Of a stretch of DNA of 64,000 nt, positions 15,838-33,438 are shown piece after piece (positions within the stretch are counted from its first letter, which is position 1; each line of letters opens with the position of its first letter). The notes under the pieces were generated by a model that made no database searches, was not told where the DNA came from, and saw only the letters and a list, made by a program, of their open reading frames with translations. The position numbers and the translations under genes were made by a program. This DNA is from an uncultured Acetatifactor sp. (GTDB lineage: Bacteria; Bacillota; Clostridia; Lachnospirales; Lachnospiraceae): contig CAKRYI010000011.1 in assembly GCA_934426825.1 (NCBI GenBank), positions 5,302 through 69,301 on the forward strand, written 5' to 3'.

Positions 15838-18800
15838 ATGCAAAATCAGACGATGAAACATCATCTTGGAAAACAGCAGAAAATGGAAAATAGAAACGGA
15901 AATGGAAGAAAGCGCACTGCAACGGGTGGTCTGCGCAGAGCGGGCAGATGGGCAGCGGCATTTTTGCTTGTGGGCTTCCTTGCAGGTGCCTCTTTCGGGG
16001 CACCGGGCATGGAAAGGGTAAACGCGGCGCAGACAATACAGACGCAGACAGCGGTGATGGAGCTGAGCAAACTGCCGCTCATAGCGGACAACGCCCAGCG
16101 CCTTGACTTTACGATCAATGCGGGCAATGTATCCAAGTACGACAATGCGGTTCTGACGGGCAGCTTCTCGGACGAGGACGGAAATATCGCGCGAAAGAGG
16201 ATCGTGATAGACGGTACGACCGTAAACCTGACAATCCGGGATGTGAACATCGACCGCAGCACATGGTACGCTACGACGGCGGCGGTTGAGCTGATAAACG
16301 GCGCAAAGCTGAATCTGACGCTGGAGGGGGACAATGTGCTCAAGGGCAGTATCGGAGGCGCCGGCATCGGCGTCGGGGAGGACTGCACCCTGACGATCAC
16401 CGGACAGAGCATGGGAACACTGACAGCGGTAGGCGGCAGTTATTACGGAGGCGCAGCGGGCATCGGCGCCAACGGAACAGGGGCTTATGCGGGTAAGCCG
16501 AGAGAGGTTATCCAGAAGTTCGGAACCATCATCATAGAGGGCGGTACAGTCAATGCAGAGGGCGGAACCTATTTCTATAGGGGCGTGCTGGAATCCTCGG
16601 GAGCCGGAATCGGCGGCTCCGGCTATGGATCCGAGGGAACCATTATCATCCGGGGCGGCGTTGTCAATACCGTCGGAGGAACCGGAGCAGCCGGAATCGG
16701 CGGCGGATGCGCCGGTCATGTGGATAAGATCGAGATTACCGGCGGTAAGGTGACTGCCACCGCCGTGGTAGATGGAACCAATTCCACAATTCAGGGAGCG
16801 GCGATCGGCAGTGGATACAATGGAAACTCTATGGAGGCGATGCCCTGCGGGGAAATTTCCATTATGGGCGGGGAAATCACTGCAGACGGAAATATCGGCT
16901 ATGGAACAGGAGACAACGAATATAATGGCGGCAGTATCCGCATTGGCGGGGAGGCGAAGCTGGATGTCACGGGAACGATAAGCCTCAAAGACCCTGAGGG
17001 AGTGGCGTACATGCTGCAGCTTACGGTATATGATGTAAGACTGGTGGGAAGTCAGAATATTGCAGGAACCGCAGAATTGAAAAATCAGAAAAGGAAAACA
17101 ATCGGCGAGGTTTCCGGGGCTTCCGCTGCGATCGAGTTAGAATATTTTGCCGAGAGCGAACTGACCGGAAAGCAGGACGTCAAGGTAACCATTGGGGAAT
17201 ACGAGTATCAGACACAGGTGGATTTTCAGGCGGGAAAGACCGACTATGCCGTGCAGATCGGACAGCCGCTGTGCGACACGCGGCTGCGGCTTGACATCGA
17301 CTGGACTTGGGGGACGAAAGCGCGGAAGGTCACTTCCCTCAGCGTCACGAAGGCGGGCAAGGAGTTTGACCGTCAGGAATATTATGTGGCAGAGAAGACG
17401 GAAGGCACCGAATCGAAGGACTATCTTTATCTTCAGATGTACCTTCCGGAGGGAGAGCAGTATGACATCACTGCTGCCATTGAAGGTGTAAATGGTGGAG
17501 AGCCTGTGACCGTGAGCGGGCAGACGGTAAAAGGCGGTGCAGAAAATGTGATCTATGTTCTGCCCCTCAATGTGGAACTGATCGATGCGGACAATACGGA
17601 TAATCTAGCGGAGGTCACAGTCTCCGGCAAAAAGGATATAACGGTACATTATCTGGTAAGCAAAACTGACTTCACGGATGAGGAGATTCAGGCAAAGGCG
17701 GAGATAGGGGAGACCGAAAGCCTTAAATTGACCGGTGGAACACAGACCTTTTCCGTGGCAGCGTCGGACGTAGAGACGGATGTGACCTGCTATGTCATTG
17801 CCAAAGGCAGTAATGGTTATTCAAAGGTTTACAGACAGAGCTTCCATTCGGGGGAATTGGTTGCGGTGGAAGCCATGCTGTATAAGCGCGGCGAGACGGA
17901 AGGAATTGCCTATGCCACATTGGATGCCGCAGTCGCGGCGGCACAGAAACCGGAGAATAAGGGCTGTACGGTTCGTCTTCAGGAGAATATGATCCACAGC
18001 GGCACCCTGACCGTGAACGATGGCAGCTTTACGCTGGACGTTAACGGCAAGCAGTTGACGGCGGAGGACCGCACAACGCTCCTGCAGCTGGACGGCGGAA
18101 GCCTCACCCTGAAGGACAGTAAAGGAACCGGCAGCATGGTGGGCGGAAAAAGGGTTGGGAGCACCGTTGCGCATATAATCGTCGCCAACGGCGGCACACT
18201 GACCATACAGAACGGTAACTATTGGGTAAACGCAAACGGAAGCGGAGCGGACGCAGATAAAGGTGCCGTTATTTACACAGACGAGGGGGCGAATCCGGTT
18301 GTAAAAATCAAGGATGGCAGCTTTGGAAGGAAGACCCAATGTTCAAAATATGGTTTTTATATGCAGAGTGGTATACTGGAGGTGGAAGGCGGCACATTTG
18401 TAGAAGTGTGGAATTATGCAATTAAGGATACCGAGGCAACGATCAGCGGGGGCGAGTTCCAAAGCAATCTTATTCTGAGTCAGGACAATGCGAAGCTGAG
18501 GGGAGGCAGCTTCGCCACGCTCATGGTGGCGGATGAAGCGGGTAATATTGCATCAGACGGAGACTGTAGCCAGCTGCTGGATGGAACATATGGAGAGAAG
18601 TATCAGTATAAGAAGAACGGTAACTTGGTAGAGGCGAAAGATGCAAAAGGTAATAGTTTGTTTAATGTCGAGGTCATCTGCGTGCTGCCGGAGCTGGATA
18701 GAAGCGCCAAAATCACGATTGTTAACGGAGGCACAAGGCAGCCCATGGTCGGGGATACCCTGCAGTGTACATTTGAGCCGTATCCAGTCGGAAAGGAATG

Positions 18801-21800
18801 GGATGTGATAGATACACATACCTACAACTGGTATCGTGTGGACGGCGAGGAGGCGACGCTTGTGCACACAGGTTCAGGAAGATGGAACTGCACCTACGAC
18901 GTGACGGCGGACGACATCGGAAAGAAGCTCTATTGTGAGGTGGTGTTCGAAAAGTACCAGAGCGTACGCACAGAACCGACGAAAACAGTGACAAAGTACA
19001 GACTGAACGCCATCAATACCCTGTTCAAAAACACGGTCACCAAGTATTATACGGGAGAGCCGGTTACACTGACGGCGGAAGACTTAGCTGACGCAGGTGT
19101 GGGAGGCAACAATAATCTGAATCTGCAGCTGGACACCGACTTTATTGTTCAAAGGTACGAGAACAATACAGAAGTCGGCAAGGCGACGGTGTGGGTTGAG
19201 GGAATCGGTGATTATATAGGTTCCACGCAAAATAGATTCGACATCGTGTATAAGCCCATGAATGTCACTCCCACCGTAAAAGGGCTGGGAGCGGACGGCT
19301 GGACCAATTGTGCCGAACTGGTGGCACCGGAGGGCTATACTATCAGCTTTTCCCAGAAGGATGGCTACGCGGGCAGTATTTTCTATGACAAGGAGAGTGG
19401 CATGGACGGTGTGCAGCCTACCTATTATCTGCGGGAGACTGCAACCGGTTATATTTCCGATGCAAAGCAGCTGGCGGATGTGATCAAAGTTGAGAAGGAG
19501 GCGCCTGCCTTTACCGGAGAATCCGACGGCATTTCCTTCGGCCTGAGCAACTGGAAGGAACGGGAGAAGCCTATTTCCTTTGAAATAAAGACGAAATCTG
19601 CGCAGATGGCGCTTCATGCCACGGACGCACTTTCCGGCATACAGACCTACTATTACTACGCAGACCGGGTACAGGACACTGCCAATTATCAGGTGCTGAC
19701 CGATTACCAGCTGCAGGAACTGGAGCGGAGCTTCAAGGCTGCTGAAAACGGCAGATTTACGTTGGATACGGACGGCAGCTATGTTGTGTACGCCTATGCG
19801 GTGGATAAGGCGGGCAACCGGAGCACTGTAATCTGCTCGGGCGGCATTGTGATTGACAACACCGCACCGGGACTGACGGCAGCCGTGCCTGCGGAGAAGA
19901 TTAAGTCCAATGAGGCGGATGTGGAATTTACAATGGATGAGGCGGGAACGCTTTCTTATTATTATTGCGACAGCAATTCCGGCTTTGGGATGAATGAGAC
20001 GCCGACTTTTGAGGAACTGGAGAACCATAAGGGTGCTTTTGACGAGCATTTCAGATACGGTACCGTTTCCGTTTCCCTTGGTCAGGTGGGGCAGAAGCAG
20101 AACCTTTCTTTGGAAAATTTAGACATTCATACAGAGTATGCGGTCTATCTGGTGACAGAGGATGAAATGGGTAATGTCAGTCAGGTGAAACGGCTGAATT
20201 TCAGAACGAAGAAGTTGCTTCCTGTTTTGAAGGAGGCTCCGACGCTTACCGGAGAGTACGGTACGAAAGTAGCTGACCTGCAGATTACCGGAGGCAGCGT
20301 CTTACAGCCGGACAAAGAGACTGCATTGGAGGGAACATGGTCCCTTGTAACCGGCAATACGGGACTTGACCTTGTGCCGCAGGTAGGAGAGGAAAAAACC
20401 TATCGCGTGATTTATAAGATAACAAGTGCAGGAGGGCTGAATGACGCTTACGAAGATGTGGAATGTGACGCAAAGGCAGTAATCACACCGAAGGACATCA
20501 GTTCCTTTACGGTGGAGGACATTGCGGACTGCGAGTACAGTGGTGCAGAACTGACTCCGGAGCCTGTTGTAAAGGGGACGGACCGCTACGGCGCGGAACA
20601 GACATTGACAAAGGGTGTGGACTATCAGGTTTCCTACCGGGATAATACGCATGCGGGAACGGCGACGATTGTTATCACCGGTCAGGGCAATTATCAGGGA
20701 GCACTCGAGAAGGAGTTTCAGATTACGCAGGCAAGGAATGAATTTACCTCGAAGCTGACCTGTGACAGTTATACCTACGACAAGGAAGCGGTACCCGCAC
20801 CGAACGTGACGGCAAAGTATGGAACGGTGATTTATGAGTATGCAAAGGTAGCGGACAACGGAAATCCGCCGGTAGAAGACGATTACACGACTGAGCTTCC
20901 GGTAAAGGCGGGAGAATGGTGTGTCAGGGCTTATGTGCCGGAGACAGAGGATTATACCGGAATGCTCAGCGGAGGCGTGCCATTTACAATCCGTAAGGCG
21001 GAATACCGGAACGGAATACAGTACGGGGAATATGTGTCTTACAGAGACTGGACGGGAGAAACAGTGACGGTTCCGGGAGAAAAGTTTTTCCCGAATCCGC
21101 CCGAAGATTGCGGCAAGATTACCTACAGTGTGAAGGTGGATGACCTCTCTAATATTTTAGAAGGAACGGCTGTGGTAGATGAGAACGGAACCCTGTCGTA
21201 CCGGTTGAGGCAGGTTACGGCAAGTGAGATAGAAAACGGGAAAAAACAGGCATGGATCACTTACAAAATCTCCACGGAAAATTATGAGATTGTCGGAGAT
21301 TCCGGCTGGAGGATTGAAGTTGTCGATTGGCTGGAGTTTCAGGGAAGGGATGAGGTGCAAATTGATGGAAGCAATGAGCTGACTTACGGTCAGAAGCTGT
21401 CCGCACTGACCTTAAATAGCAGAAATAGCGTCTTCCATGACGTGCACATGAACGAGGTAGAGGGCAGCTTTGAATGGCTGGAGCCGGAGAGCGTGCCTGC
21501 CGTCGGAACGACATCGGCGACCTATTACCTCCGTCATTCTTTAAAGGAAAGCTACAAGACATATCAGAACGAGATTGCGATTACCGTTGTTCCGGCAGCG
21601 CCGAGGGTGACGGCACCCGTGTTGGGGAACGGCGTGACAATTACCTATGACCCCGCAAAGACGTTGGGCGACGTTTTTCCGATGAACGGCTATGCAGCGG
21701 CAGGCAGTATGGCAGAAAGTATCTGGACGGGCGGCAGCGCCGTATGGACGGTTGGAGACAATGAGGTGACTGTGGACGGAAGCTGGAGCTGGCAGAACCC

Positions 21801-23544
21801 GGACATTGTACCGACGGTGGATAGCGAGGGCTATGTGGCTGTCTTTACGCCGACAGACAATGTAAATTATAAGCCGGCAACGGCAGTTGTAACGCTTGCA
21901 CTCGGAAAGGCAAAGCCTGAAATTACGGAGAAGCCGACGGCGGCAGCAATCACTTACGGGCAGACGCTTGGGGAGAGTCTGCTGAGCGGAGGTGCAGGAA
22001 ACGTAGCAGGAACCTTCGCATGGAAGGATGGGAACGTGAAACCCACTGTTTCTGATGGTGACGCAACGCCGTACGAGGTAGTATTTACCTCAGAGGACAG
22101 TAACTGGGGAACGGCGGAGACGACAGTGACCCTTAAAGTCAACAAGGCGCCCTGTCCGTCCAATATGCCGCAGACGCAAATGGCGCCCGCGCATAGATTC
22201 AAGACGGTCGGAGAGGTGGAGCTGCCGCAGGGCTGGTACTGGGTGGAAACCGATGCTCTGCAGGAGCTTGCCGATGAGACGGCGGTGACTGCAACGGCAG
22301 TTTACAACGGAAGCGACAAGGGCAATTATGAGACCGAGAGCGTTGAAATTGTGCTGATAAGGAGTAAATGTGAGCATACGTCCACGGCGGTGAACGGAAG
22401 GAAGGATGCGACCTGTCAGGCGGAAGGTTATACCGGAGACACGGTATGTGCGGAATGTGGTGTCACGCTGTCAGTGGGAACGACGATTCCCAAGACGGCG
22501 CACAGCTATACAGGTGTGGTGACGAAGGCTGCGACAACGGAGGAAGAGGGCGTCATGACCTATACCTGTGGCATTTGCATGCACAGCTACACCGAGGCAA
22601 TCGCAAAGCTGACACCTGCCCCCGCACCGGCACCGACGCCCGCACCCACGACAGAGCCTGCAGCGGCACCTGCAGCGTCAACACCTGCGGCAGAGCCTGA
22701 AACAAAACCCGCACCGGCGAATGACCGGACGACAAAATCCACAGAAGCTCCCAAGGCAGAGACTGAGACAGCACCGGCACCGACGACGAAGTCCACAGCG
22801 GAGTCCGCGTCTGAGGAAACACCGGATGCAGGAATGCCGTACCTTAAGAAAGATACCGGAAAGAACGGCTGGGAACTGATTAAGGAACAGTTGGAGAATG
22901 TGCCGGACAGAGATGTTGTTGACGTGGAAATGAACGGTGCAACCACCGTGCCGGGAGATGTTTTTGACACCATCAAAGGCAGAGATTTGACAGTTGTTTT
23001 CCATATGGGAGACGGTATCAGCTGGACGGTGAACGGTAAGGATGTCACGGCAGATAAGGGTAAGGATATTGATTTCGGGGTAGTGTTTGGCAAAGAAGCC
23101 GGAAAGACGATTCCGGTGGAGGTCATCAATAATGTTACCGGAGAGAGATATTCCATCAACCTGACGCTTGCGTATGACGGCGAGTTTGGCTTTCAGGCGA
23201 CGCTTACCGTGAATATGGATAAAAAGAATGCCGGACTTTTTGCAAACCTGTTCTATTATAACGAACAGTCCGGCGAACTGGAATTTATCTGTGCCGGTGA
23301 GATAGACAGTAAAGGAGAGGTCGGACTGACCTTCACCCATGCTTCGGACTACACGATTATCGTGGATGTGCAGTCGATGGAGCCGAATGCGATGGACGAT
23401 GCGGCAAATCCGGCGGTTTCGCAGGAGGTAAGTGCAGCAGGAAGTTTCCATCCCGTTGGGGCACTCCTTATCGCACTGGCGGTGATCGCTCTCGGCGCAG
23501 GAGGATTCCTGCTTGTGAGAGCGAAAAAGGGAGAGGAAGAATAA
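15838..23544 (+). CDS. Giant cell-surface protein (2568 aa): signal peptide, Gly-rich beta-helix-like repeats, many Ig-like/beta-sandwich repeats, 6-Cys module, Pro/Thr-rich linker, conserved about 190-aa C-terminal module, C-terminal TM anchor
   Basis: N-terminal signal (RWAAAFLLVGFLAGASFGAPG). Repeated G-G-x-x-AGIGG motifs between aa 150 and 350. Long T/V/Y-rich repeat region. Cys module CEHTSTAVNGRKDATCQAEGYTGDTVCAECG...TYTCGICMHSYTE. PAPAPAPTPAPT... linker. The C-terminal module and hydrophobic tail (ALLIALAVIALGAGGFLLVRAKKGEEE) are shared with the downstream paralogue. No LPXTG. SD AAGAGGAAGTGG. Confidence 0.85.
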   Translation: MQNQTMKHHLGKQQKMENRNGNGRKRTATGGLRRAGRWAAAFLLVGFLAGASFGAPGMERVNAAQTIQTQTAVMELSKLPLIADNAQRLDFTINAGNVSKYDNAVLTGSFSDEDGNIARKRIVIDGTTVNLTIRDVNIDRSTWYATTAAVELINGAKLNLTLEGDNVLKGSIGGAGIGVGEDCTLTITGQSMGTLTAVGGSYYGGAAGIGANGTGAYAGKPREVIQKFGTIIIEGGTVNAEGGTYFYRGVLESSGAGIGGSGYGSEGTIIIRGGVVNTVGGTGAAGIGGGCAGHVDKIEITGGKVTATAVVDGTNSTIQGAAIGSGYNGNSMEAMPCGEISIMGGEITADGNIGYGTGDNEYNGGSIRIGGEAKLDVTGTISLKDPEGVAYMLQLTVYDVRLVGSQNIAGTAELKNQKRKTIGEVSGASAAIELEYFAESELTGKQDVKVTIGEYEYQTQVDFQAGKTDYAVQIGQPLCDTRLRLDIDWTWGTKARKVTSLSVTKAGKEFDRQEYYVAEKTEGTESKDYLYLQMYLPEGEQYDITAAIEGVNGGEPVTVSGQTVKGGAENVIYVLPLNVELIDADNTDNLAEVTVSGKKDITVHYLVSKTDFTDEEIQAKAEIGETESLKLTGGTQTFSVAASDVETDVTCYVIAKGSNGYSKVYRQSFHSGELVAVEAMLYKRGETEGIAYATLDAAVAAAQKPENKGCTVRLQENMIHSGTLTVNDGSFTLDVNGKQLTAEDRTTLLQLDGGSLTLKDSKGTGSMVGGKRVGSTVAHIIVANGGTLTIQNGNYWVNANGSGADADKGAVIYTDEGANPVVKIKDGSFGRKTQCSKYGFYMQSGILEVEGGTFVEVWNYAIKDTEATISGGEFQSNLILSQDNAKLRGGSFATLMVADEAGNIASDGDCSQLLDGTYGEKYQYKKNGNLVEAKDAKGNSLFNVEVICVLPELDRSAKITIVNGGTRQPMVGDTLQCTFEPYPVGKEWDVIDTHTYNWYRVDGEEATLVHTGSGRWNCTYDVTADDIGKKLYCEVVFEKYQSVRTEPTKTVTKYRLNAINTLFKNTVTKYYTGEPVTLTAEDLADAGVGGNNNLNLQLDTDFIVQRYENNTEVGKATVWVEGIGDYIGSTQNRFDIVYKPMNVTPTVKGLGADGWTNCAELVAPEGYTISFSQKDGYAGSIFYDKESGMDGVQPTYYLRETATGYISDAKQLADVIKVEKEAPAFTGESDGISFGLSNWKEREKPISFEIKTKSAQMALHATDALSGIQTYYYYADRVQDTANYQVLTDYQLQELERSFKAAENGRFTLDTDGSYVVYAYAVDKAGNRSTVICSGGIVIDNTAPGLTAAVPAEKIKSNEADVEFTMDEAGTLSYYYCDSNSGFGMNETPTFEELENHKGAFDEHFRYGTVSVSLGQVGQKQNLSLENLDIHTEYAVYLVTEDEMGNVSQVKRLNFRTKKLLPVLKEAPTLTGEYGTKVADLQITGGSVLQPDKETALEGTWSLVTGNTGLDLVPQVGEEKTYRVIYKITSAGGLNDAYEDVECDAKAVITPKDISSFTVEDIADCEYSGAELTPEPVVKGTDRYGAEQTLTKGVDYQVSYRDNTHAGTATIVITGQGNYQGALEKEFQITQARNEFTSKLTCDSYTYDKEAVPAPNVTAKYGTVIYEYAKVADNGNPPVEDDYTTELPVKAGEWCVRAYVPETEDYTGMLSGGVPFTIRKAEYRNGIQYGEYVSYRDWTGETVTVPGEKFFPNPPEDCGKITYSVKVDDLSNILEGTAVVDENGTLSYRLRQVTASEIENGKKQAWITYKISTENYEIVGDSGWRIEVVDWLEFQGRDEVQIDGSNELTYGQKLSALTLNSRNSVFHDVHMNEVEGSFEWLEPESVPAVGTTSATYYLRHSLKESYKTYQNEIAITVVPAAPRVTAPVLGNGVTITYDPAKTLGDVFPMNGYAAAGSMAESIWTGGSAVWTVGDNEVTVDGSWSWQNPDIVPTVDSEGYVAVFTPTDNVNYKPATAVVTLALGKAKPEITEKPTAAAITYGQTLGESLLSGGAGNVAGTFAWKDGNVKPTVSDGDATPYEVVFTSEDSNWGTAETTVTLKVNKAPCPSNMPQTQMAPAHRFKTVGEVELPQGWYWVETDALQELADETAVTATAVYNGSDKGNYETESVEIVLIRSKCEHTSTAVNGRKDATCQAEGYTGDTVCAECGVTLSVGTTIPKTAHSYTGVVTKAATTEEEGVMTYTCGICMHSYTEAIAKLTPAPAPAPTPAPTTEPAAAPAASTPAAEPETKPAPANDRTTKSTEAPKAETETAPAPTTKSTAESASEETPDAGMPYLKKDTGKNGWELIKEQLENVPDRDVVDVEMNGATTVPGDVFDTIKGRDLTVVFHMGDGISWTVNGKDVTADKGKDIDFGVVFGKEAGKTIPVEVINNVTGERYSINLTLAYDGEFGFQATLTVNMDKKNAGLFANLFYYNEQSGELEFICAGEIDSKGEVGLTFTHASDYTIIVDVQSMEPNAMDDAANPAVSQEVSAAGSFHPVGALLIALAVIALGAGGFLLVRAKKGEEE

Positions 23545-23547
23545 ATC

Positions 23548-24861
23548 TTATTTTTGTATCACAATATCAATCGTGAAACAATCGGCGGTGTGGGAGAATT
23601 TAGCCATGCCGCCGTATTTTTCTGCCACGGTGGCAATGGAGGTCAGACCGATGCCGGAACCGCCCTTATGTGTGGAGAGGTAGGCATCGTCCCTTTGCTT
23701 TACAACACCGTCAAAGCTGTTTTCAGAGATAATGTAAAGACAACGGTCATGCTGCGGCTGAATTGTTAAGTTGTGATATTTTTTCTCCGGCGGAAGGGTC
23801 TGGCAGCCATAGTATACATTTTCCAGCAGATTGCCGAGAAGCCCGCAGAGTTCGGTGTCCGTAATTTGAAGGTTGTTCGGAAGACTGATTTTCCAGCTAC
23901 GGCGGATTCCGTCGGCGTCCATCCTTGCCGCATAGTAATTTAACAGGGCATTGACCGGAATGTTCAGGCAATAGGTCGTTACGGATTCCGGAAGAGAAGA
24001 AATGTATTCCGACAGATGGCTTGTCAGCGCATCATAGTCTTTATCCTGAGCCATCTGGGCAATGCTTAAGAGCTGCTGGCGGAAATCATGGCGCTGTCTG
24101 GAGGATTCTGTAATGTAGCGCTGCTGGGCAAGGTAATGGCTCTCCTGCATCTCGAAAAAGCGGATGCGTTCCCTGTCCTGAGAACTCCGGCGGAGTTCCA
24201 CGGTCATCATATAGAAAATCAGATAAATGATATTGAACAGGAAGAATACAAGAGCTATGTAAATAAGGTAAATCGGGTAGACACGGTTGACGTACATGGT
24301 TTCGTATTTATGCGGCATCATCATAATGTTGAGCACAATAAAAATCAGCGGAACCGGCAGGGAAACAGCCCACACGCGGGGGGATTCCGTGAAATCAATG
24401 AAATCTCCGAGAAAACGGTAGAAGAACCACGCATATAACAGCAAAAACAGGACACTGATACCCAGTTGGACGCTCCCGACAAGGGGACAATGGGACAGGG
24501 AGCCTTCTAACGGGTGTACGCGGCAGTCGATGGCAAGGGTGATGAGCGTGGGAAAGGACATCAGAGCCATGACAAGCAGAAAGACGGATGCAGTTGTGCA
24601 GATATGTGTCTTAAGCACCTTTTGATAACAGGCAAAAAGGACTGCCACCAACGGCAGAAGGACATAGTTGGTTGGAAGATCGGCAAGGGTGACGATAGCA
24701 GCGCAGAGCGGTATCAGGACGGCAAACAGACCGCTCGCCACAAGGCAGAGCTTCCGGATGGGGAGGCGCAGCTGGTTCCGCACGGGAAGCAGACACAGCG
24801 CAGCAGCCGGAAACAGTATCATAAATGAAAAAATTTCAGATAAATAATTCATGGGATTCAA
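23548..24861 (-). CDS. Sensor histidine kinase, LytTR-associated (AgrC/GHKL-type) with polytopic N-terminus
   Basis: 437 aa with about 6-7 N-terminal TM helices. The C-terminal HATPase with GGSGIGLTSIATVAEKYGG is typical of HPK10-type kinases paired with LytTR regulators. It overlaps the upstream regulator gene by 4 nt. Confidence 0.8.
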   Translation of the reverse strand: MNPMNYLSEIFSFMILFPAAALCLLPVRNQLRLPIRKLCLVASGLFAVLIPLCAAIVTLADLPTNYVLLPLVAVLFACYQKVLKTHICTTASVFLLVMALMSFPTLITLAIDCRVHPLEGSLSHCPLVGSVQLGISVLFLLLYAWFFYRFLGDFIDFTESPRVWAVSLPVPLIFIVLNIMMMPHKYETMYVNRVYPIYLIYIALVFFLFNIIYLIFYMMTVELRRSSQDRERIRFFEMQESHYLAQQRYITESSRQRHDFRQQLLSIAQMAQDKDYDALTSHLSEYISSLPESVTTYCLNIPVNALLNYYAARMDADGIRRSWKISLPNNLQITDTELCGLLGNLLENVYYGCQTLPPEKKYHNLTIQPQHDRCLYIISENSFDGVVKQRDDAYLSTHKGGSGIGLTSIATVAEKYGGMAKFSHTADCFTIDIVIQK

Positions 24862-25597
24862 TTCCTTTCTGACATGGAGTTATGGAATTTGGTAAAGTTG
24901 TAATTGTGCCATGTCTGGGTCAGCTGGCGCAGTTTTCGCTGTGTCACCGGAACATTCAGACCGTTTTGCAAAAGACAGGCATTTCCCTGAAAGCCGGTGA
25001 TATGGTCCATATTCACAAGGATTCCGCGGCTGACAAGCAGAAAGCGTCCGTCCTCCGTAAGCGGCTTTGTAAAGCCGGAAAATGCGGAGTATACGGTGTA
25101 TTCCCTGCCGGAAATACACTGCACGAGTGTGGAATGTCCGGAGGCGGATAAACAGGCAATCTCGCTGTAGAAGAGCCGGATGTCCAGACCGTTTGAGGAA
25201 AAGGACAGGTAATCCTCCGGCTTTGGCAGAAGCGCAAGGGAATCCGTCAGACAGGTAAAAAATTTATTCTTTTCCAGTGGTTTTTCAATGTAATCGAAAG
25301 CATGGACGGAAAATGCCTGCCCCATATGCTCACCGCTGGAGGTGAGAAAAATCAGCAGGGAACGGCTGTCGGATTCCCGCATTTTCTTGGCGGTGTCGAT
25401 TCCGCTCATGCCGCCCATGTAAATATCCATAAACACAATGTCATAAGTATAGGGAACAAACGCGGAGAGAAATGACTCGCCGCTCTCAAACATATCTACT
25501 TCAAATTCCGTGTGCATTTCCTCGGCGAAGGAGGAAAACAGTCTGCCGGCGGACTCTCTCTCCACCGCAGAATCATCCACCAGTGCAAATCGCATCA
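24858..25597 (-). CDS. LytTR-family response regulator (REC + LytTR DNA-binding domain)
   Basis: MRFALVDDSAVER...DIVFMDIYMGGMSGID (REC with phospho-Asp context) and a C-terminal LytTR domain (…DIRLFYSEIACLSASGHSTLVQCISGREYTVY…LLVSRGILVNMDHI…). The ATG at 25597 has AGGAG 7 nt upstream. The longer ORF-track start at 25727 lacks an SD. Confidence 0.85.
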
Positions 25598-25693
25598 GAT
25601 TCAACGCTCCTCTTCTGTATTTATACATAGTATAGCATAAATGGGAAGTGGGGACATAAATTTTTTGCGGGAAGCGGAAACAGTCATTTGTTA

Positions 25694-25722
25694 TTCGTGA
25701 CGAAAGTTGTCGTTTCGTGCAA
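25694..25722. promoter_or_regulatory. Direct repeat TTCGTGA-N13-TTCGTGC (20-bp period), a candidate LytTR regulator binding site, with a TATAAAAT -10-like box about 27 bp downstream
   Basis: Two near-identical heptamers at 25694 and 25714 sit in the divergent intergenic region between the LytTR regulator gene and the surface-protein paralogue. LytTR/AgrA-type sites are paired direct repeats with about a 21-bp period. Confidence 0.4.
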
Positions 25723-25834
25723 GTCACCTTGCGCAGAGAGTCAAACCTATATAAAATTAGAAAAAGTGTAGTTATTTATAACCGAGATATTAGATGAAAG
25801 CAGGCATAAAGAGTATGAAGAAGTGGAACAAAGA

Positions 25835-27558
25835 ATGAAAAAAAATAATGGCGGTAACGCTGGCGGCGCTGATTGCCGGCAGTACGGTGGAACCGTCGGC
25901 ATTGGCGGCGGCAGCGGCGGGTCAGAAGCAGGAAGTGACGCTGACGGCAGTTGATACACCGGATGCGGCGGTAACGGGGAGCGCGGACGGGAAGGATTCT
26001 GTGAGCGGTAACTCTGTGACAGCCGGGGACAGTGCACTTGCCGGGGAAAATGGAATAGCGACGCTGGCTGAGGAGAGCGGTTCCACGGAAGATGTGGTCA
26101 GTCTGACCATAGGTGAGACCACCACAAACTATACGTCTCTGTCAGTAGCAGTGGCGGCGCTGCCAACAGATTCCGACGCAACACTGACGCTGCTGGGGGA
26201 TTGTCCGGCAGATACCTATATACTTGGAGACAAGGTAACAGGCACGGTAACGCTGGATCTGGCGGGGCATGCATTGACAGTGCCGGACGATAACAATATT
26301 ATGTTAAGCAGTGATAGTTTTATTGTGATGTCTTCACAAAATGTCGGTTACAAGGTCTGAGTGCAGTCATCCCCAGACGGTAGTAAGGAATGCACAAGAG
26401 GCAACCTGTACCGAAGCCGGCTATACCGGAGACACCTACTGCACAGAGTGTAACCAAATTACCGTGAACGGCACGGTAATCCCCGCCAAGGGACACAGCT
26501 ACACGTCAGTGATTACAAAACAGCCGACGACCGCAGAGGAAGGCATCCGAACCTACACCTGCGGAGGCTGCGGACACAGTTACACGGAACCTGTGGAAAA
26601 ACTGAACGACAGCGGTTCGGGTAGTACAGATACTGGAAATAAAGACGCGGGAAATGCGGATAGCGGAAATAAAGACGCAGGAAGCGCAGGTGCCGGAAAC
26701 AAAGACACGGGAAGCACAAACACAGAAAGCACAGAACCGGGAAACAAAAATACGGCAAGCACAGATACCAACACCACAGACGCAGGAAACGGCAGCCGCA
26801 GCGCAGCTCCATTCCTCAAGGGAGAGAACGGCAAAGAAGGCTGGGACGTCATCTGTGAGGATGTGAAGGCGGCTTCGGCGGGAGAAGAGATTACCGTGGA
26901 TATGAACGGCACTACTGTGGCACCCGGCAACCTGTTTGAACTGATTCACGGAGAAAATATTACTGTTGTGTTTGATATGGGTAACGGCATTGCATGGAGT
27001 GTGAACGGAAAAGATGTCACCGACATAAAAGGTGATATTGATTTCGGCATTACATTCGGAACAGAAGCAGGGAAAAACATTCCGGTAGATGTGATTAACA
27101 GTATCACAGGCGAGCATACATCGATGAATCTGACGTTAGCATATAACGGCGAGTTTGGATTTACGGCAGCACTGACAGTCAATCTGGAAGAAGCAAATGC
27201 CGGATACTATGCAAATCTGTTTTATTACAATCCGGATAACAGCAGCTTGGAGTTTGTATGTGCCGGACAGATTGGAAAAGACGGTAATGTAAATCTCACA
27301 TTTACGCATGCTTCCGATTACACGATAGTAATTGCAGAAATTATAATGGATGAAAAGAATATCGACAGTATTCAAAAAACTGACGATAAGGAACTGTCTG
27401 AACAGGATGCAGAACCGGCTTCTCAGGATTCAAGCGCCGGGTCAGCCAAAGCGGATGATTCCGCGTGGAGAAGTTTTTGGATGATAATGCTTGGTTCGAT
27501 AGTAGTTGTTGTAGGAGTGGGTATGTTCTTTATTAACAAAAAGAAGAAATCCGAGTAG
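25835..27558 (+). pseudogene. Paralogue of the giant surface protein (about 575 aa if repaired), apparently disrupted by two +1 frameshifts in A-runs. The intact ORFs are 25848..26360 and 26341..27558.
   Basis: With A7 instead of the observed A8 at 25838-25845, the ATG at 25835 gives MKKIMAVTLAALIAGSTVEPSALAAAAAGQ, a textbook signal peptide. As sequenced, the ATG at 25835 frame stops after 39 codons, and the ORF from 25848 has no SD and no charged n-region. The second ORF begins SECSHPQTVVRNAQEATCTEAGYTGDTYCTECN, which is homologous to the Cys module of the giant protein. The frames would join (…FIVMSSQ|MSVTRSEC…) if the A4 at 26337-26340 were A3. The C-terminal module and TM tail are homologous to the giant protein's. 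Confidence 0.5.
26635..26790 (+). repeat. Imperfect 18-bp tandem repeats encoding a GNKDAG/S-T low-complexity linker in the paralogue
   Basis: ggaaataaagacgcgggaaatgcggatagcggaaataaagacgcaggaagcgcaggtgccggaaacaaagacacggga... encodes TDTGNKDAGNADSGNKDAGSAGAGNKDTGSTNT... Confidence 0.6.
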
Positions 27559-27674: not shown

Positions 27675-29372
27675 TTACTGTACATTCGCTGTTTTCTTTT
27701 TACGAAGCAGCTCTTTGCCGGAAGTGACGACGATAATGACTCCCAGAACCATAAGCAGAATCGCAATGATTAATTGTAATCCCTCTACCATGAAAACGGC
27801 GGTGCCTGCACCGAAGGCTTTGACAAGACCGATGGTACGCTCTACCAAAGCGGTGAAGGTGACACCCAACATAATCACCAGAGGAACGATTAAGGTACGG
27901 TTTTCTCTGCCGGTTACTTTTAAGAAAACGCAGAGGGTGATGAGTACCAAAGCGCTCAGCAACTGGTTGGCGCTGCCAAACAGCGGCCAGATATTGGAGT
28001 AACCGATTTTTGTCAGAATAAAGCCGCAGGCGAGGGTAACAACGGTGGAGAAATATTTGTTGCAGAGAACCTTTCTCCAAAGAGCGGCGTTTTTCATATC
28101 ATCCGTGCTGAACAGTTCCTGAAAGGACATACGTCCGATTCTTGCCACGGCGTCCAGACTGGTAAGAGCTAAAGCGGAAACACACATGGTCATGAAGCAC
28201 TGGGCTACATAGACAGGGAATCCGAACATTTCCAGCAGTCCTGCCACACCGGAGGAAAAGATTTGGAAAGGAGTTCCGGTGGCGGGAGTTCCGTCAGCGG
28301 CGGCAGCGGCTCCGGCAACACAGAGTGCCAGAATAGCCAGCAGACTTTCCAAAATCATGGCACCATAACCGACCTTTAACATATCCTTTTCGTTGGCAAT
28401 GGTCTTGGATGAGGTTCCGGAGGAAACCAGACTGTGGAAACCGGATACGGCGCCACATGCCACAGTTACGAAGAGAATGGGGAACAAATCACCCAGCTTT
28501 TCGTTATGGAATCCGGTAAAGGTGGGAAGGTTCATGGAAGGGTGAGCAACCAAAAGGCCTACCACAGCGCCTAAAATCATACCGCCGAACATGAAGGTGG
28601 TCATATAATCACGGGGCTGTTTCAACAGCCACATGGGAAGTACGGATGCAAGGAATATGTAAGCAAAGGTAAAGTAAATCCAAGCGTCCTTGCCGCCGGT
28701 GATGGGGAATGCCATACCGATACCGAGGGAGGCTACGGTGCAAAGCAGTCCGACCACACATTCCTTCCAGCCGGAGAGGTTGAATTTCTTTTGCAGTAAA
28801 CCGAAAATCATGGCAAACACGATAAACAGGATGGAAATGGTTCCTGCGGCGCCGTTTGCTTTTGCGGCGGGTGAAAGAGAGGTTACACCGTCAGTCACAA
28901 CAAACGCATTGAAAGTGCCCGCCACCATGTCGGCAAATGCGGCAATGACAATCAGGGTAAAGAGCCAGCAGAAAATTAAGAACAGCTTTCTACCGGTTTT
29001 GCCAATGTATTTTTCAATTAACAGTCCCATGGATTTGCCTTCGTTCTTGACGCTGGCATACAATGCGCCGAAGTCGGTAACGGCACCGAAGAAAATACCG
29101 CCTAAGACAATCCAAAGAAATACGGGAACCCATCCAAAGACAGCTGCCTGAATGGCACCCGTTACAGGGCCGGCACCGGCAATGGAGGAGAACTGGTGGG
29201 CAAATACTACCCAGCCGTGGGTCGGAACATAGTCCTGACCGTCCTCATGGACACAGGCGGGAGTTTTGGCTTTCGGGTCAATGCCCCATTTTTTTGCAAG
29301 CCATCTGCCATAGAGTGTGTAGCCTGCCAAGAGGCATACAGCAGCGATTAATACGATTACAAGTGTGTTCAT
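27675..29372 (-). CDS. cstA: Carbon starvation protein A (CstA family peptide/pyruvate transporter)
   Basis: 565 aa polytopic protein. The N-terminus MNTLVIVLIAAVCLLAGYTLYGRWLAKKWGIDPKAKTPACV...HQFSSIAGAGPVTGAIQAAVFGWVPVFLWIVLGGIFFGAVTDFGALYASV is strongly CstA-like. Confidence 0.9.
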   Translation of the reverse strand: MNTLVIVLIAAVCLLAGYTLYGRWLAKKWGIDPKAKTPACVHEDGQDYVPTHGWVVFAHQFSSIAGAGPVTGAIQAAVFGWVPVFLWIVLGGIFFGAVTDFGALYASVKNEGKSMGLLIEKYIGKTGRKLFLIFCWLFTLIVIAAFADMVAGTFNAFVVTDGVTSLSPAAKANGAAGTISILFIVFAMIFGLLQKKFNLSGWKECVVGLLCTVASLGIGMAFPITGGKDAWIYFTFAYIFLASVLPMWLLKQPRDYMTTFMFGGMILGAVVGLLVAHPSMNLPTFTGFHNEKLGDLFPILFVTVACGAVSGFHSLVSSGTSSKTIANEKDMLKVGYGAMILESLLAILALCVAGAAAAADGTPATGTPFQIFSSGVAGLLEMFGFPVYVAQCFMTMCVSALALTSLDAVARIGRMSFQELFSTDDMKNAALWRKVLCNKYFSTVVTLACGFILTKIGYSNIWPLFGSANQLLSALVLITLCVFLKVTGRENRTLIVPLVIMLGVTFTALVERTIGLVKAFGAGTAVFMVEGLQLIIAILLMVLGVIIVVTSGKELLRKKKTANVQ

Positions 29373-29735
29373 AGTATAACCTCGTTTCTTAGAGTATTTT
29401 GTGTATCAAAATCCATAATGGGTGACCGGGTAGGGGAAAATAAAAAATCCTCCGTCTTTACAGTTACCTGTAGAAGACGAAGGATGAATCTCCGCGTTAC
29501 CACTTCTTTTGCCGGGTTATACCGACCTCTCTGCCACATCCGCTGTTATTCAGGTGAATGCGTTCCTTTTTAACGGTAGGATACCGGCGAGGGCTACTTG
29601 CAAAGCGTTTGCCCAAGCTGCTGGCAGGGGATAGCCTCGCACCGACGCTGTTGTCTCACACCAGCCGACAACTCTCTGAAAACGTGCTATGGTAGGAAGT
29701 CCTGTCCTGTTCATCGCATTTGGATATTGATGTTG
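29373..29735 (-). ncRNA. Structured 5' leader of cstA with T-box-riboswitch-like elements: antiterminator GAAG-UGGUAAC-GCGGAG…CUUCGU-CUUC, overlapping terminator hairpin plus U-run, F-box-like CCGUUA, AGAGAG, and a GCGAUGA K-turn-like segment
   Basis: Minus-strand RNA of about 360 nt lies between a sigma-A promoter and the cstA SD. Plus-coordinate 29492-29502 (CCGCGTTACCA on the plus strand) reads GUGGUAACGCGG on the transcript, against the T-box consensus GGUGGNACCGCGG. The flanking 4-bp and 6-bp helices with a 7-nt bulge reproduce antiterminator geometry. The mutually exclusive terminator is CCUUCGUCUU-loop-AAGACGGAGG followed by AUUUUUUAUUUU at plus 29437-29484. CCGUUA is at plus 29571-29576. 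Confidence 0.55.
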
Positions 29736-29741
29736 ACACTT

Positions 29742-29769
29742 ATTTTAGTCCTAAAAATTGGTTTGTCAA
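29742..29769 (-). promoter_or_regulatory. Sigma-A-type promoter for the cstA leader: TTGACA-16 nt-TAAAAT
   Basis: On the minus strand TTGACA is at plus 29769-29764, a 16-nt spacer follows, and TAAAAT is at plus 29747-29742. Confidence 0.6.
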
Positions 29770-31415: not shown

Positions 31416-32261
31416 ATGGATAAGAGAGAAATCAGACAGCAGTTTCTTACCGGTGAGAGAGCTTTGTTTCAGGGAGAGAACCTGCAAATTTACGATACTA
31501 TTTTTGCCGACGGCGAGTCTCCGCTTAAGGAGAGCCATGATATTGAGTTATACGGAAGTATGTTTAAGTGGAAGTACCCGCTTTGGTACAGCCGCAATAT
31601 TTTGCTGAAAGACTGTACCCTGTTTGAGATGGCGAGAGCGGGTATCTGGTATACGGACCATATTTCCTTAACAGATACCATTGTGGAGGCACCGAAGAAT
31701 TTCAGACGCTGCCATGATGTGACGCTTGAGAATGTGTCTTTCCCCAATGCTGCGGAAACACTGTGGAGCTGCGACGGAGTGCAGATGAACCGGGTGACGG
31801 CAAAGGGCGATTATTTTGCCATGAACAGTAAAAATATGGTGATAAAGGATTTCCAGTTATTGGGAAATTACAGCTTTGACGGAGCGGAGAATGTGGAGAT
31901 TCACAATGCAAAAATGTTGTCCAAGGACTCTTTCTGGAACAGTGACAACATTACGGTATATGATTCTTTCATTTCCGGAGAATATTTAGGATGGAATGCC
32001 AAAAATCTGACGTTAATTAACTGTACGGTGGAAAGTTTGCAGGGAATGTGTTATATCGACAATCTGGTTATGAAAAACTGCAAGCTGATTAACACGACAC
32101 TGGCATTTGAATATTCCACGGTCGAGGCGGATATTCACAGTAAGATTGACAGCGTGCTGAATCCCAATGGAGGAATTATCCGTGCCGATTCTATCGGGGA
32201 ACTGATTATTGAGAAGGACAAGGTTGACCCCGCAAAGACTAAAATTATTTGTAAAGAATAA
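31416..32261 (+). CDS. Uncharacterised protein, DUF3737-like (predicted beta-helix). Family name is from memory and unverified.
   Basis: About 281 aa with short, repeated N/D/G-rich beta-strand units (…NVEIHNAKMLSKDSFWNSDNITVYDSFISGEYLGWNAKNLTLINCTVES…). The ATG at 31416 has GGAGGAA immediately upstream. The next gene, patB, starts 20 nt later. Confidence 0.5.
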   Translation: MDKREIRQQFLTGERALFQGENLQIYDTIFADGESPLKESHDIELYGSMFKWKYPLWYSRNILLKDCTLFEMARAGIWYTDHISLTDTIVEAPKNFRRCHDVTLENVSFPNAAETLWSCDGVQMNRVTAKGDYFAMNSKNMVIKDFQLLGNYSFDGAENVEIHNAKMLSKDSFWNSDNITVYDSFISGEYLGWNAKNLTLINCTVESLQGMCYIDNLVMKNCKLINTTLAFEYSTVEADIHSKIDSVLNPNGGIIRADSIGELIIEKDKVDPAKTKIICKE

Positions 32262-32280
32262 CCGTTCAGGAGGCAGCAGG

Positions 32281-33438
32281 ATGCAGTACGATTTTGACAA
32301 AGTGATTGACAGAAGAAACACTAATTCCCTGAAGTGGGACGTGCCGGAGAGAGAACTGCCCATGTGGGTGGCGGATATGGATTTTCAGACGGCACCGGAA
32401 ATCATTTCGGCGCTTCAAAAGAGAACGGAGCATGGCGTTTTCGGTTACTCTGTTGTGCCGGATGAATGGTATGACGCATATGTTCACTGGTGGAGGGACA
32501 GACATCATTTTACGATGGAAAAGGACTGGCTGATTTTCTGCACGGGAGTGGTTCCCGCCATTTCCAGTATGGTACGGAAGCTGACAACGGCGGGCGAAAA
32601 GGTGCTGGTGCAGACCCCGGTTTACAATATCTTTTTTAATTCCATTGTTAACAACGGAAGAATCATTCTGGAAAATGAGCTTTTGTACGATGGCAATTCC
32701 TATTCCATGGATTTTGAAGATTTGGAAAGAAAGCTGTCTGACCCGCAGACCACGCTGATGCTTTTGTGCAATCCGCAGAATCCTGCCGGCAGAATCTGGG
32801 GATGCGAGACTTTGGAAAAGGTGGGAGAGCTGTGCTGGAAGCACCATGTGCGGGTGATTTCGGACGAGATTCATTGCGATTTGGCTTTTCCCGGACAGGA
32901 GTATATTCCGTTTGCCTCCGTTTCGGACAAATGCAGAATGAACAGTGTTACCTGTCTTGCACCGACAAAGGCATTCAATATCGCCGGACTCCAGACTGCG
33001 GCGGTGTCCGTGCCTGATCCGGTACTTCGGCATAAAGTAAACAGAGGCCTGAATACGGATGAGGTGGCGGAACCGAATGCGTATGCCGTGCAGGCGGCGG
33101 TGGCGGCATTTACGGAAGGTGCGCCGTGGCTGGATGAACTGCGGGAATACCTCTATGGAAACAGGCAGTATGTGCAGACTTTTTTGAAAAAAGAGCTCCC
33201 GCAGGTGAAATTAGTGGAGTCTCAGGCAACCTATCTTTTGTGGCTGGACTGTGAGAAAATTGCAAAAGATACGGAGCCGCTGGCAGACTTTTTGCGGAAA
33301 GAGACCGGACTGTATGTGACGGCGGGCGGCTGTTACGGCTCCGGGTCACAGAAATTTTTAAGGGTCAATATCGCATGTCCGAGAGGGACATTGGAGGACG
33401 GAATGAACCGCCTGAAAACAGGTTTACAAAAATTTTAG
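32281..33438 (+). CDS. patB: MalY/PatB-type PLP-dependent C-S lyase (cystathionine beta-lyase / aminotransferase class I-II)
   Basis: MQYDFDKVIDRRNTNSLKWDV...MWVADMDFQTAPEI is the hallmark N-terminus of PatB/MalY. SD CAGGAGG before the ATG at 32281. Confidence 0.85.
   Translation: MQYDFDKVIDRRNTNSLKWDVPERELPMWVADMDFQTAPEIISALQKRTEHGVFGYSVVPDEWYDAYVHWWRDRHHFTMEKDWLIFCTGVVPAISSMVRKLTTAGEKVLVQTPVYNIFFNSIVNNGRIILENELLYDGNSYSMDFEDLERKLSDPQTTLMLLCNPQNPAGRIWGCETLEKVGELCWKHHVRVISDEIHCDLAFPGQEYIPFASVSDKCRMNSVTCLAPTKAFNIAGLQTAAVSVPDPVLRHKVNRGLNTDEVAEPNAYAVQAAVAAFTEGAPWLDELREYLYGNRQYVQTFLKKELPQVKLVESQATYLLWLDCEKIAKDTEPLADFLRKETGLYVTAGGCYGSGSQKFLRVNIACPRGTLEDGMNRLKTGLQKF

Follow-up and report, generated by a model that had tools for sequence, protein, structure and literature searches.

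A probable isoleucine-specific T-box riboswitch in the leader of cstA, conserved among gut Lachnospiraceae and Oscillospiraceae

The stretch of DNA analysed here (64,000 nucleotides, referred to as the window) comes from an uncultured Acetatifactor sp. of the Lachnospiraceae (GenBank assembly GCA_934426825.1, contig CAKRYI010000011.1, positions 5,302 to 69,301), and carries on its minus strand a cstA gene for a transporter of the carbon-starvation family, preceded by its own promoter and a long structured leader. This leader is, with a probability that we put at about 0.88, a tRNA-Ile-specific, transcription-attenuating T-box riboswitch. The locus is laid out as follows, in window coordinates.

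29764..29769, minus strand: -35 hexamer TTGACA, from the promoter scan
29742..29747, minus strand: -10 hexamer TAAAAT, from the promoter scan, with a 16-nt spacer to the -35 hexamer
29470..29723, minus strand: T-box leader, matching Rfam family RF00230 end to end
29380..29383, minus strand: ribosome-binding site GAGG, read from the sequence, 7 nt 5' of the ATG
27675..29372, minus strand: cstA, 565 aa, with the Pfam CstA domain PF02554 (E = 1.9e-141)

The TTGACA-16-TAAAAT pair agrees with the consensus at 11 of 12 positions and lies about 363 nt 5' of the cstA start codon (ATG at 29372), which would place the transcription start near 29735 and make the leader about 360 nt long, as the first-pass annotation of this DNA had proposed. 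Homologous leaders carry an aligned TTGACA in nearly all cases and a TATAAT or TAAAAT at the same place, and the promoter scan found no promoter-like site between the terminator and the ATG. A MATE transporter gene lies 5' of cstA on the same strand; because the genes beyond the 3' end lie on the opposite strand and converge with it in the map of open reading frames (ORFs), cstA is monocistronic and the sole gene under the leader.

The leader aligned with RF00230 over model positions 1-219 of 219 at 89.9 bits, with E = 2.9e-20 in a local scan and 3.1e-18 against the whole window, where it was the only Rfam match when an E-value threshold was applied. The covariance-model search that the first-pass annotation had suggested as a check was therefore positive at E values of about 1e-18 to 1e-20, although the score stays 3 bits under the family's gathering score of 93. 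Because of this small deficit, a default whole-window Rfam scan at gathering thresholds returned no matches, and a practical lesson is that such a scan overlooks this element. In a permissive scan of the leader, the T-box was the sole significant family, the two other matches having E > 1. The model alignment also placed GCGAUGA at the K-turn, AGAGAG at the AG bulge, GGCUGGUGUGA at the distal loop, CCGUUA at the F-box and GUGGUAACGCGG at the T-box sequence, so that three motifs picked out earlier from the letters alone (CCGUUA, AGAGAG and GCGAUGA) each fall at a matching conserved position. Single-sequence folding of the 373-nt leader did not recover the T-box architecture, and Stem I folded by itself was not recovered either (z = +1.44), and we therefore turned to comparative analysis.

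Stem I and its parts are located as follows.

29620..29717, minus strand: Stem I, from the RF00230 alignment, covariation and RNAalifold
29717..29711, minus strand: K-turn GCGAUGA, from the RF00230 alignment
29709..29706 with 29628..29625, minus strand: Stem I helix CAGG/CCUG
29677..29672, minus strand: AG bulge AGAGAG, from the RF00230 alignment
29666..29656, minus strand: distal loop GGCUGGUGUGA, from the RF00230 alignment
29630..29632, minus strand: specifier AUC (Ile), within CUAUCC (29634..29629), which forms the specifier loop's 3' side

Across 54 leaders (alignment A1), the five helices of Stem I were paired in 92.8% of cells and showed compensatory changes in 20 of 23 pairs; none of 500 shuffles did as well, slid controls reached 38-54% paired, and RNAalifold, run unguided, returned the same Stem I helices. 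Stem I thus folds by comparison, and the specifier, which the first-pass annotation had left open, is AUC, a codon for isoleucine. It is followed by C29629 and then by the CCUG strand that pairs with CAGG, a position that conforms to the TBDB rule of a specifier 2-4 nt from the loop end. The same triplet stands in 63 of 64 aligned leaders, and in TBDB AUC makes up 99% of isoleucine specifiers. The base 3' of the specifier is A in 32 leaders, C in 30 and G in 2. The single exception in the specifier itself, from Oscillospiraceae bacterium SUG7 (L040:2660-2764), is a cstA T-box with CUC for leucine (77% of leucine specifiers in TBDB), which looks like a one-base specificity switch among the branched-chain amino acids.

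The middle of the leader holds the remaining domains.

29588..29617, minus strand: Stem II (CUUGGGC ... GCCCUCG), from the Rfam alignment and covariation, with an internal loop of the GAA...AGUA type
29565..29586, minus strand: Stem IIA/B pseudoknot, from covariation in 41 leaders
29586..29584 with 29576..29574, minus strand: IIA/B helix CGG/CCG, its pairs invariant in 41 of 41 leaders
29576..29571, minus strand: F-box CCGUUA, from the RF00230 alignment
29580..29578 with 29567..29565, minus strand: pseudoknot loop CCU pairing with AGG, with covarying pairs
29511..29526, minus strand: Stem III (GUCGG-UAUAAC-CCGGC), from the Rfam alignment, the same hairpin appearing in the single-sequence fold

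Stem II was paired in 94.3% of cells with compensatory changes in all six of its pairs (alignment A2), and all three pseudoknot pairs covaried (for example, UA in 21 leaders and CG in 17). Taken together over 41 leaders, Stem II and the IIA/B pseudoknot reached 95.7% paired cells and 9 of 12 covarying pairs; on four measures 0/500 shuffles were as good, on the count of covarying pairs 3/500 were, and slid controls gave 31-61%. Relative to the Rfam consensus, the window copy has a 29-nt insertion (about 29570..29542, minus strand) between the IIA/B pseudoknot and Stem III, in a linker whose length varies widely across homologous leaders.

The decision between read-through and termination would be made in the last part of the leader.

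29473..29506, minus strand: antiterminator, read from the sequence, with 10/10 pairs formed in the window
29506..29503, 29502..29496 and 29495..29490, minus strand: its 5' side, namely GAAG, the bulge UGGUAAC and GCGGAG
29489..29483, 29482..29477 and 29476..29473, minus strand: its loop AUUCAUC and its 3' side, namely CUUCGU and CUUC
29442..29485, minus strand: intrinsic terminator, a hairpin at 29485..29447 (12 + 5 bp with one bulged C) followed by a U run to 29442

Two helices round a 7-nt UGGUAAC bulge had been described in the first-pass annotation, and every part of that antiterminator, as well as the promoter and the three motifs named above, was found where it had been placed, on the minus strand. 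The bulge is UGGUANC in 65 of 65 leaders (UGGUAAC in 49, UGGUACC in 10, UGGUAUC in 6), and the antiterminator forms 10 of its 10 pairs in 46 leaders and 9 in 18. The terminator had been called a 10-bp hairpin; its U run and its sharing of the antiterminator 3' strand held, while its size was understated, the stem in fact having 12 + 5 pairs and one bulged C. A simple terminator scan did not pick it up, the stem being interrupted by a bulge and topped by an upper helix. In the window it folds at -23.5 kcal/mol (z = -6.65, with 0 of 200 shuffles folding as well), compared with -5.6 kcal/mol for the antiterminator, and the median across leaders is -23.7 kcal/mol. The two structures are mutually exclusive: the terminator 5' arm (29485..29474) includes the antiterminator 3' strand, and covers at least 6 of its 10 bases in 64 of 65 leaders. 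Bacterial tRNA-Ile and tRNA-Leu carry A at the discriminator position (A73), and the UGGU of all 65 leaders fits such a discriminator, in line with the acceptor-end pairing that the first-pass annotation had proposed.

We examined the distribution of the element in 80 cstA loci, one per species, with a protein identity of 78-86%, which come mostly from Lachnospiraceae, with some Oscillospiraceae and a few metagenome-assembled genomes (MAGs) labelled Spirochaetaceae. A search by nhmmer with the window leader gave a match directly 5' of cstA in 64 of the 80; three loci had no usable upstream DNA, so that the leader is present in 64 of 77 and lacking in 13, and an Rfam scan of nine loci without an nhmmer match found no T-box. 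Among 19 orthologous leaders scanned, 14 exceed the Rfam T-box gathering score (93.2-130.2 bits), which, with the full-length RF00230 match and the Stem I covariation, bears out the T-box interpretation first drawn from the letters. The loci share no conserved neighbour genes that might have hinted at a substrate; leader and cstA travel as a pair. Carriers of the leader include the cultured Anaerostipes sp. 992a, Hominiventricola filiformis, Dorea ammoniilytica and Ventrimonas faecis. The proteins found by a homologue search were all close relatives, at 84-99% identity along their whole length, and the search did not extend as far as Bacillus. The distant homologues fetched (31-52% identity), on large plasmids or chromids in Collinsella (52%), Acetoanaerobium (47%), Butyrivibrio (a plasmid, 43%), C. 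butyricum (32%) and Cytobacillus (31%), had neither a T-box nor any other Rfam match, and the link between T-box and cstA is therefore limited to one clade.

Several loci within this sample depart from the common arrangement. In one (L066:2840-3000), an internal deletion joins the promoter and the first Stem I bases directly to the 3' terminus of Stem III and removes the T-box and terminator; in Enterocloster alcoholdehydrogenati (L001:2700-2940), a 15-bit remnant persists, its bulge reading UGGCAGC, the distal part of Stem I missing and the terminator intact. Some lineages have lost the switch naturally. Six MAGs labelled Spirochaetaceae or Spirochaetales (L027, L028, L031, L034, L035 and L049) encode a CstA 78-80% identical to the Lachnospiraceae protein and have no T-box, and several of them share a different conserved stretch 5' of cstA (...AAAAATATATTTTCTTTTCAATTCG...); this pattern could reflect horizontal transfer of cstA with its regulation replaced, or mis-binning. 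A Bariatricus MAG (L078:2563-2670, minus strand) has a TPP riboswitch (65.2 bits, above the cut-off) on the opposite strand, just 5' of a cstA without a T-box.

The structural elements, the conservation of specifier and UGGU and the mutually exclusive terminator are present in these leaders, and the established T-box mechanism suggests how they would work. Transcription would start at the TTGACA-16-TAAAAT promoter, and Stem I would form, so that AUC (29632..29630) could pair with the GAU anticodon of tRNA-Ile while the AG bulge and distal loop settle against the elbow of the tRNA and Stem II and the IIA/B pseudoknot support the contact. An uncharged tRNA would pair through its free A73-CCA end with UGGU in the bulge (29502..29499), stabilising the weak antiterminator and letting RNA polymerase read through into cstA; a charged tRNA would make no such contact, the stronger terminator would form, and transcription would stop near 29442. 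The net effect predicted by analogy, from the binding of the tRNA and the sensing of its charge to the response of the cell, is that isoleucine limitation specifically turns cstA on.

Several observations weigh against this interpretation. The window copy falls short of the Rfam gathering score, has one mismatched pair in Stem I and one in Stem II (U29616 with C29589), and its Stem I, as noted above, does not emerge from single-sequence folding. A purine usually follows the specifier in T-boxes, as a frequent feature and not a strict requirement, and the window has C29629 there. No tRNA genes were found in the window, and the 80 fetched loci contained no tRNA-Ile, only tRNAs for Ala, Leu(UAG) and Arg. 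The CstA-family proteins characterised so far are pyruvate carriers or implicated in peptide use, and a link to isoleucine is not obvious; for the sole published T-box beside a cstA gene, the authors suspected a relic (PMC4342826).

This last point leads to one alternative, that the T-box is an inactive relic of rearrangement, always terminating or always reading through, with no regulation of cstA. Irla et al. 2015 (PMC4342826) list '(T-box)-cstA1' in Bacillus methanolicus MGA3, with no specificity given, and suggested a relic because transcript coverage is broken between the T-box transcription start and cstA1; a coverage break after a T-box in well-fed cells is, however, what a working terminator is expected to produce. 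Decay within the leader family is genuine, as the 15-bit remnant and the deletion described above attest, and the sub-threshold score and few mismatched pairs of the window copy point the same way. Set against this, the element has been kept beside cstA in 64 species with compensatory changes in four helices, the terminators are intact, and a conserved promoter stands 5' of the T-box, with nothing promoter-like between terminator and gene. Helix covariation, a nearly invariant specifier and UGGU, and intact terminators together imply purifying selection on function, and we regard a relic as highly improbable.

The frame of the specifier admits a second alternative, in which reading begins one base further on, giving UCN (Ser), or the loop accepts several tRNAs, so that the signal would be serine or mixed. 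In its favour, the +1 frame consists of serine codons in all 64 leaders (UCA 32, UCC 30, UCG 2), the CUC leader included, which still reads UCC, and C often stands after AUC in place of the usual purine; the U of UGGU could moreover wobble-pair with G73 of tRNA-Ser. Yet AUC occupies the canonical site, 2-4 nt short of the loop's 3' end, whereas UCN would abut the helix with no spacer base, and a codon that left out the A would offer no reason for its retention in 63 of 64 leaders. Among serine specifiers in TBDB, UCA and UCG are rare as well (6% and 3%), and the use of three serine isoacceptors across close relatives would be unlike known T-boxes, while AUC and CUC are the dominant specifiers for isoleucine and leucine and a UGGU in 65 of 65 leaders fits the A73 of their tRNAs by a Watson-Crick pair. 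The serine frame was rejected on the missing spacer, the three isoacceptors and the invariant A, and has, in our view, only a very small chance of being right.

That the leader represents a different class of riboswitch or attenuator, or is a small RNA or leader peptide resembling a T-box by chance, as the empty default Rfam scan and a 15-codon upstream ORF (29416..29369) ending in an ATGA overlap with the cstA start might suggest, is effectively refuted by the RF00230 match as sole significant family, the relatives scoring above the cut-off, the Stem I covariation and the upstream ORF itself, of which neither sequence nor presence is conserved and whose in-frame stop is automatic, since the gene begins ATGAA.

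If an isoleucine T-box governs cstA, it bears on what the protein does. The cstA product belongs to its family by a wide margin (Pfam PF02554, TC 2.A.114; 473 bits against a cut-off of 27). Against NCBIfam NF011590, the equivalog of E. coli CstA, it scored 238.6 bits with a cut-off of 1188, the best stretch aligning residues 2-354 only, so the E. coli substrate should not be carried over to the window protein; a sequence search of the PDB found no solved relative of the window CstA. In E. coli, CstA and BtsT are pyruvate/H+ symporters of narrow specificity; other members of the family have been reported to use peptides, and older work, as well as work in other species, ties the family to peptide use. 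Because T-boxes almost always control genes serving their cognate amino acid, this CstA would be expected to help relieve isoleucine shortage, and by the same analogy its subfamily would help to supply isoleucine, with isoleucine-containing peptides or another isoleucine source as the likeliest route.

A bolder proposal, which we advance tentatively and consider rather doubtful, is that the short (about 565 aa) clostridial CstA subfamily is a dedicated isoleucine-acquisition transporter and not a pyruvate or general carbon-starvation transporter; its cargo might be free isoleucine or branched-chain amino acids, isoleucine-rich peptides, or a branched 2-oxo or short-chain acid precursor. If true, the CstA family would acquire a physiological role new to it, and possibly a new class of substrate, with consequences for the question of peptide versus pyruvate transport by its members.

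The presence of the isoleucine T-box in more than 60 species of gut Lachnospiraceae and Oscillospiraceae suggests that the signal for cstA is a shortage of isoleucine and not of carbon, and a T-box specifier can serve as a built-in label of the physiological role of the gene it controls. The result provides a testable functional lead for a poorly characterised subfamily, common in gut bacteria, of a widespread and little-understood transporter family, and suggests that the doubted B. methanolicus cstA1 T-box may be functional.

Elsewhere in the window, at 23548-25727 (minus strand), the genes for a GHKL (HATPase_c_5) histidine kinase and a LytTR response regulator overlap and form an Agr-like two-component pair about 2 kb past the end of cstA. 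The LytTR regulator was considered as a BtsR-like co-regulator and rejected: the kinase is of the Agr/GHKL type and not the LytS/BtsS type, and other genomes do not conserve the pair beside cstA. Two overlapping ORFs of 170 and 405 aa (25848-26360 and 26341-27558, plus strand), convergent with cstA, had no Pfam or NCBIfam match, and an ORF of 2568 aa (15838-23544, plus strand) had no Pfam-A match at E <= 0.001. On the divergent side from the MATE and cstA genes, a gene for a PatB-family C-S lyase (TIGR04350, 426.7 bits; 32209-33438, plus strand) adjoins a DUF3737 gene.

Transporters under T-box control are well known. The families surveyed by Wels et al. 2008 (PMC2494555) comprise ABC, APC, DAACS, LIVCS, MFS, NHAC and NSS, and that work already used T-box specifiers to assign transporter substrates and described isoleucine T-boxes on LIVCS/BrnQ homologues in the Bacillus cereus group, which follow the same logic as the leader described here, the specifier making a transporter's expression depend on the charging of a single tRNA. 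The terms 'cstA' and 'carbon starvation' are absent from that paper, from the RegPrecise-based survey of Sun et al. 2013 (PMC3766115) and from the TBDB paper. The first-pass annotation knew of no T-box on a cstA gene; the B. methanolicus listing (PMC4342826) shows that one had been reported, while an isoleucine-specific, conserved case was not found described in the literature searched, which did not extend to key T-box reviews, and unpublished annotations of such cstA leaders are likely. The B. methanolicus element, compared by its published description only, likewise lies directly 5' of a carbon-starvation protein gene in a Firmicute, and differs in belonging to the order Bacillales and in having its regulation doubted by its authors (PMC4342826). 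E. coli cstA and btsT represent the same transporter family, also induced under nutrient shortage; they differ in answering to protein regulators (cAMP-CRP, CsrA and BtsS/BtsR) instead of a tRNA-sensing RNA, and in encoding proteins of about 700 aa compared with 565 aa. Compared with the canonical isoleucine and leucine T-boxes of Firmicutes (ileS and ilv-leu; RF00230), the cstA leader has the same full set of domains, the same UGGN-bulged antiterminator opposed to a terminator, and the usual isoleucine choice of AUC with UGGU, whereas it drives a transporter and not a tRNA synthetase or biosynthetic operon, carries C after the specifier in about half of the copies and, in the window copy, has an insertion before Stem III and a score just under the Rfam cut-off. 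The switch is of a textbook kind; what is new is its target gene, its conserved isoleucine specificity and its breadth across gut Clostridia.

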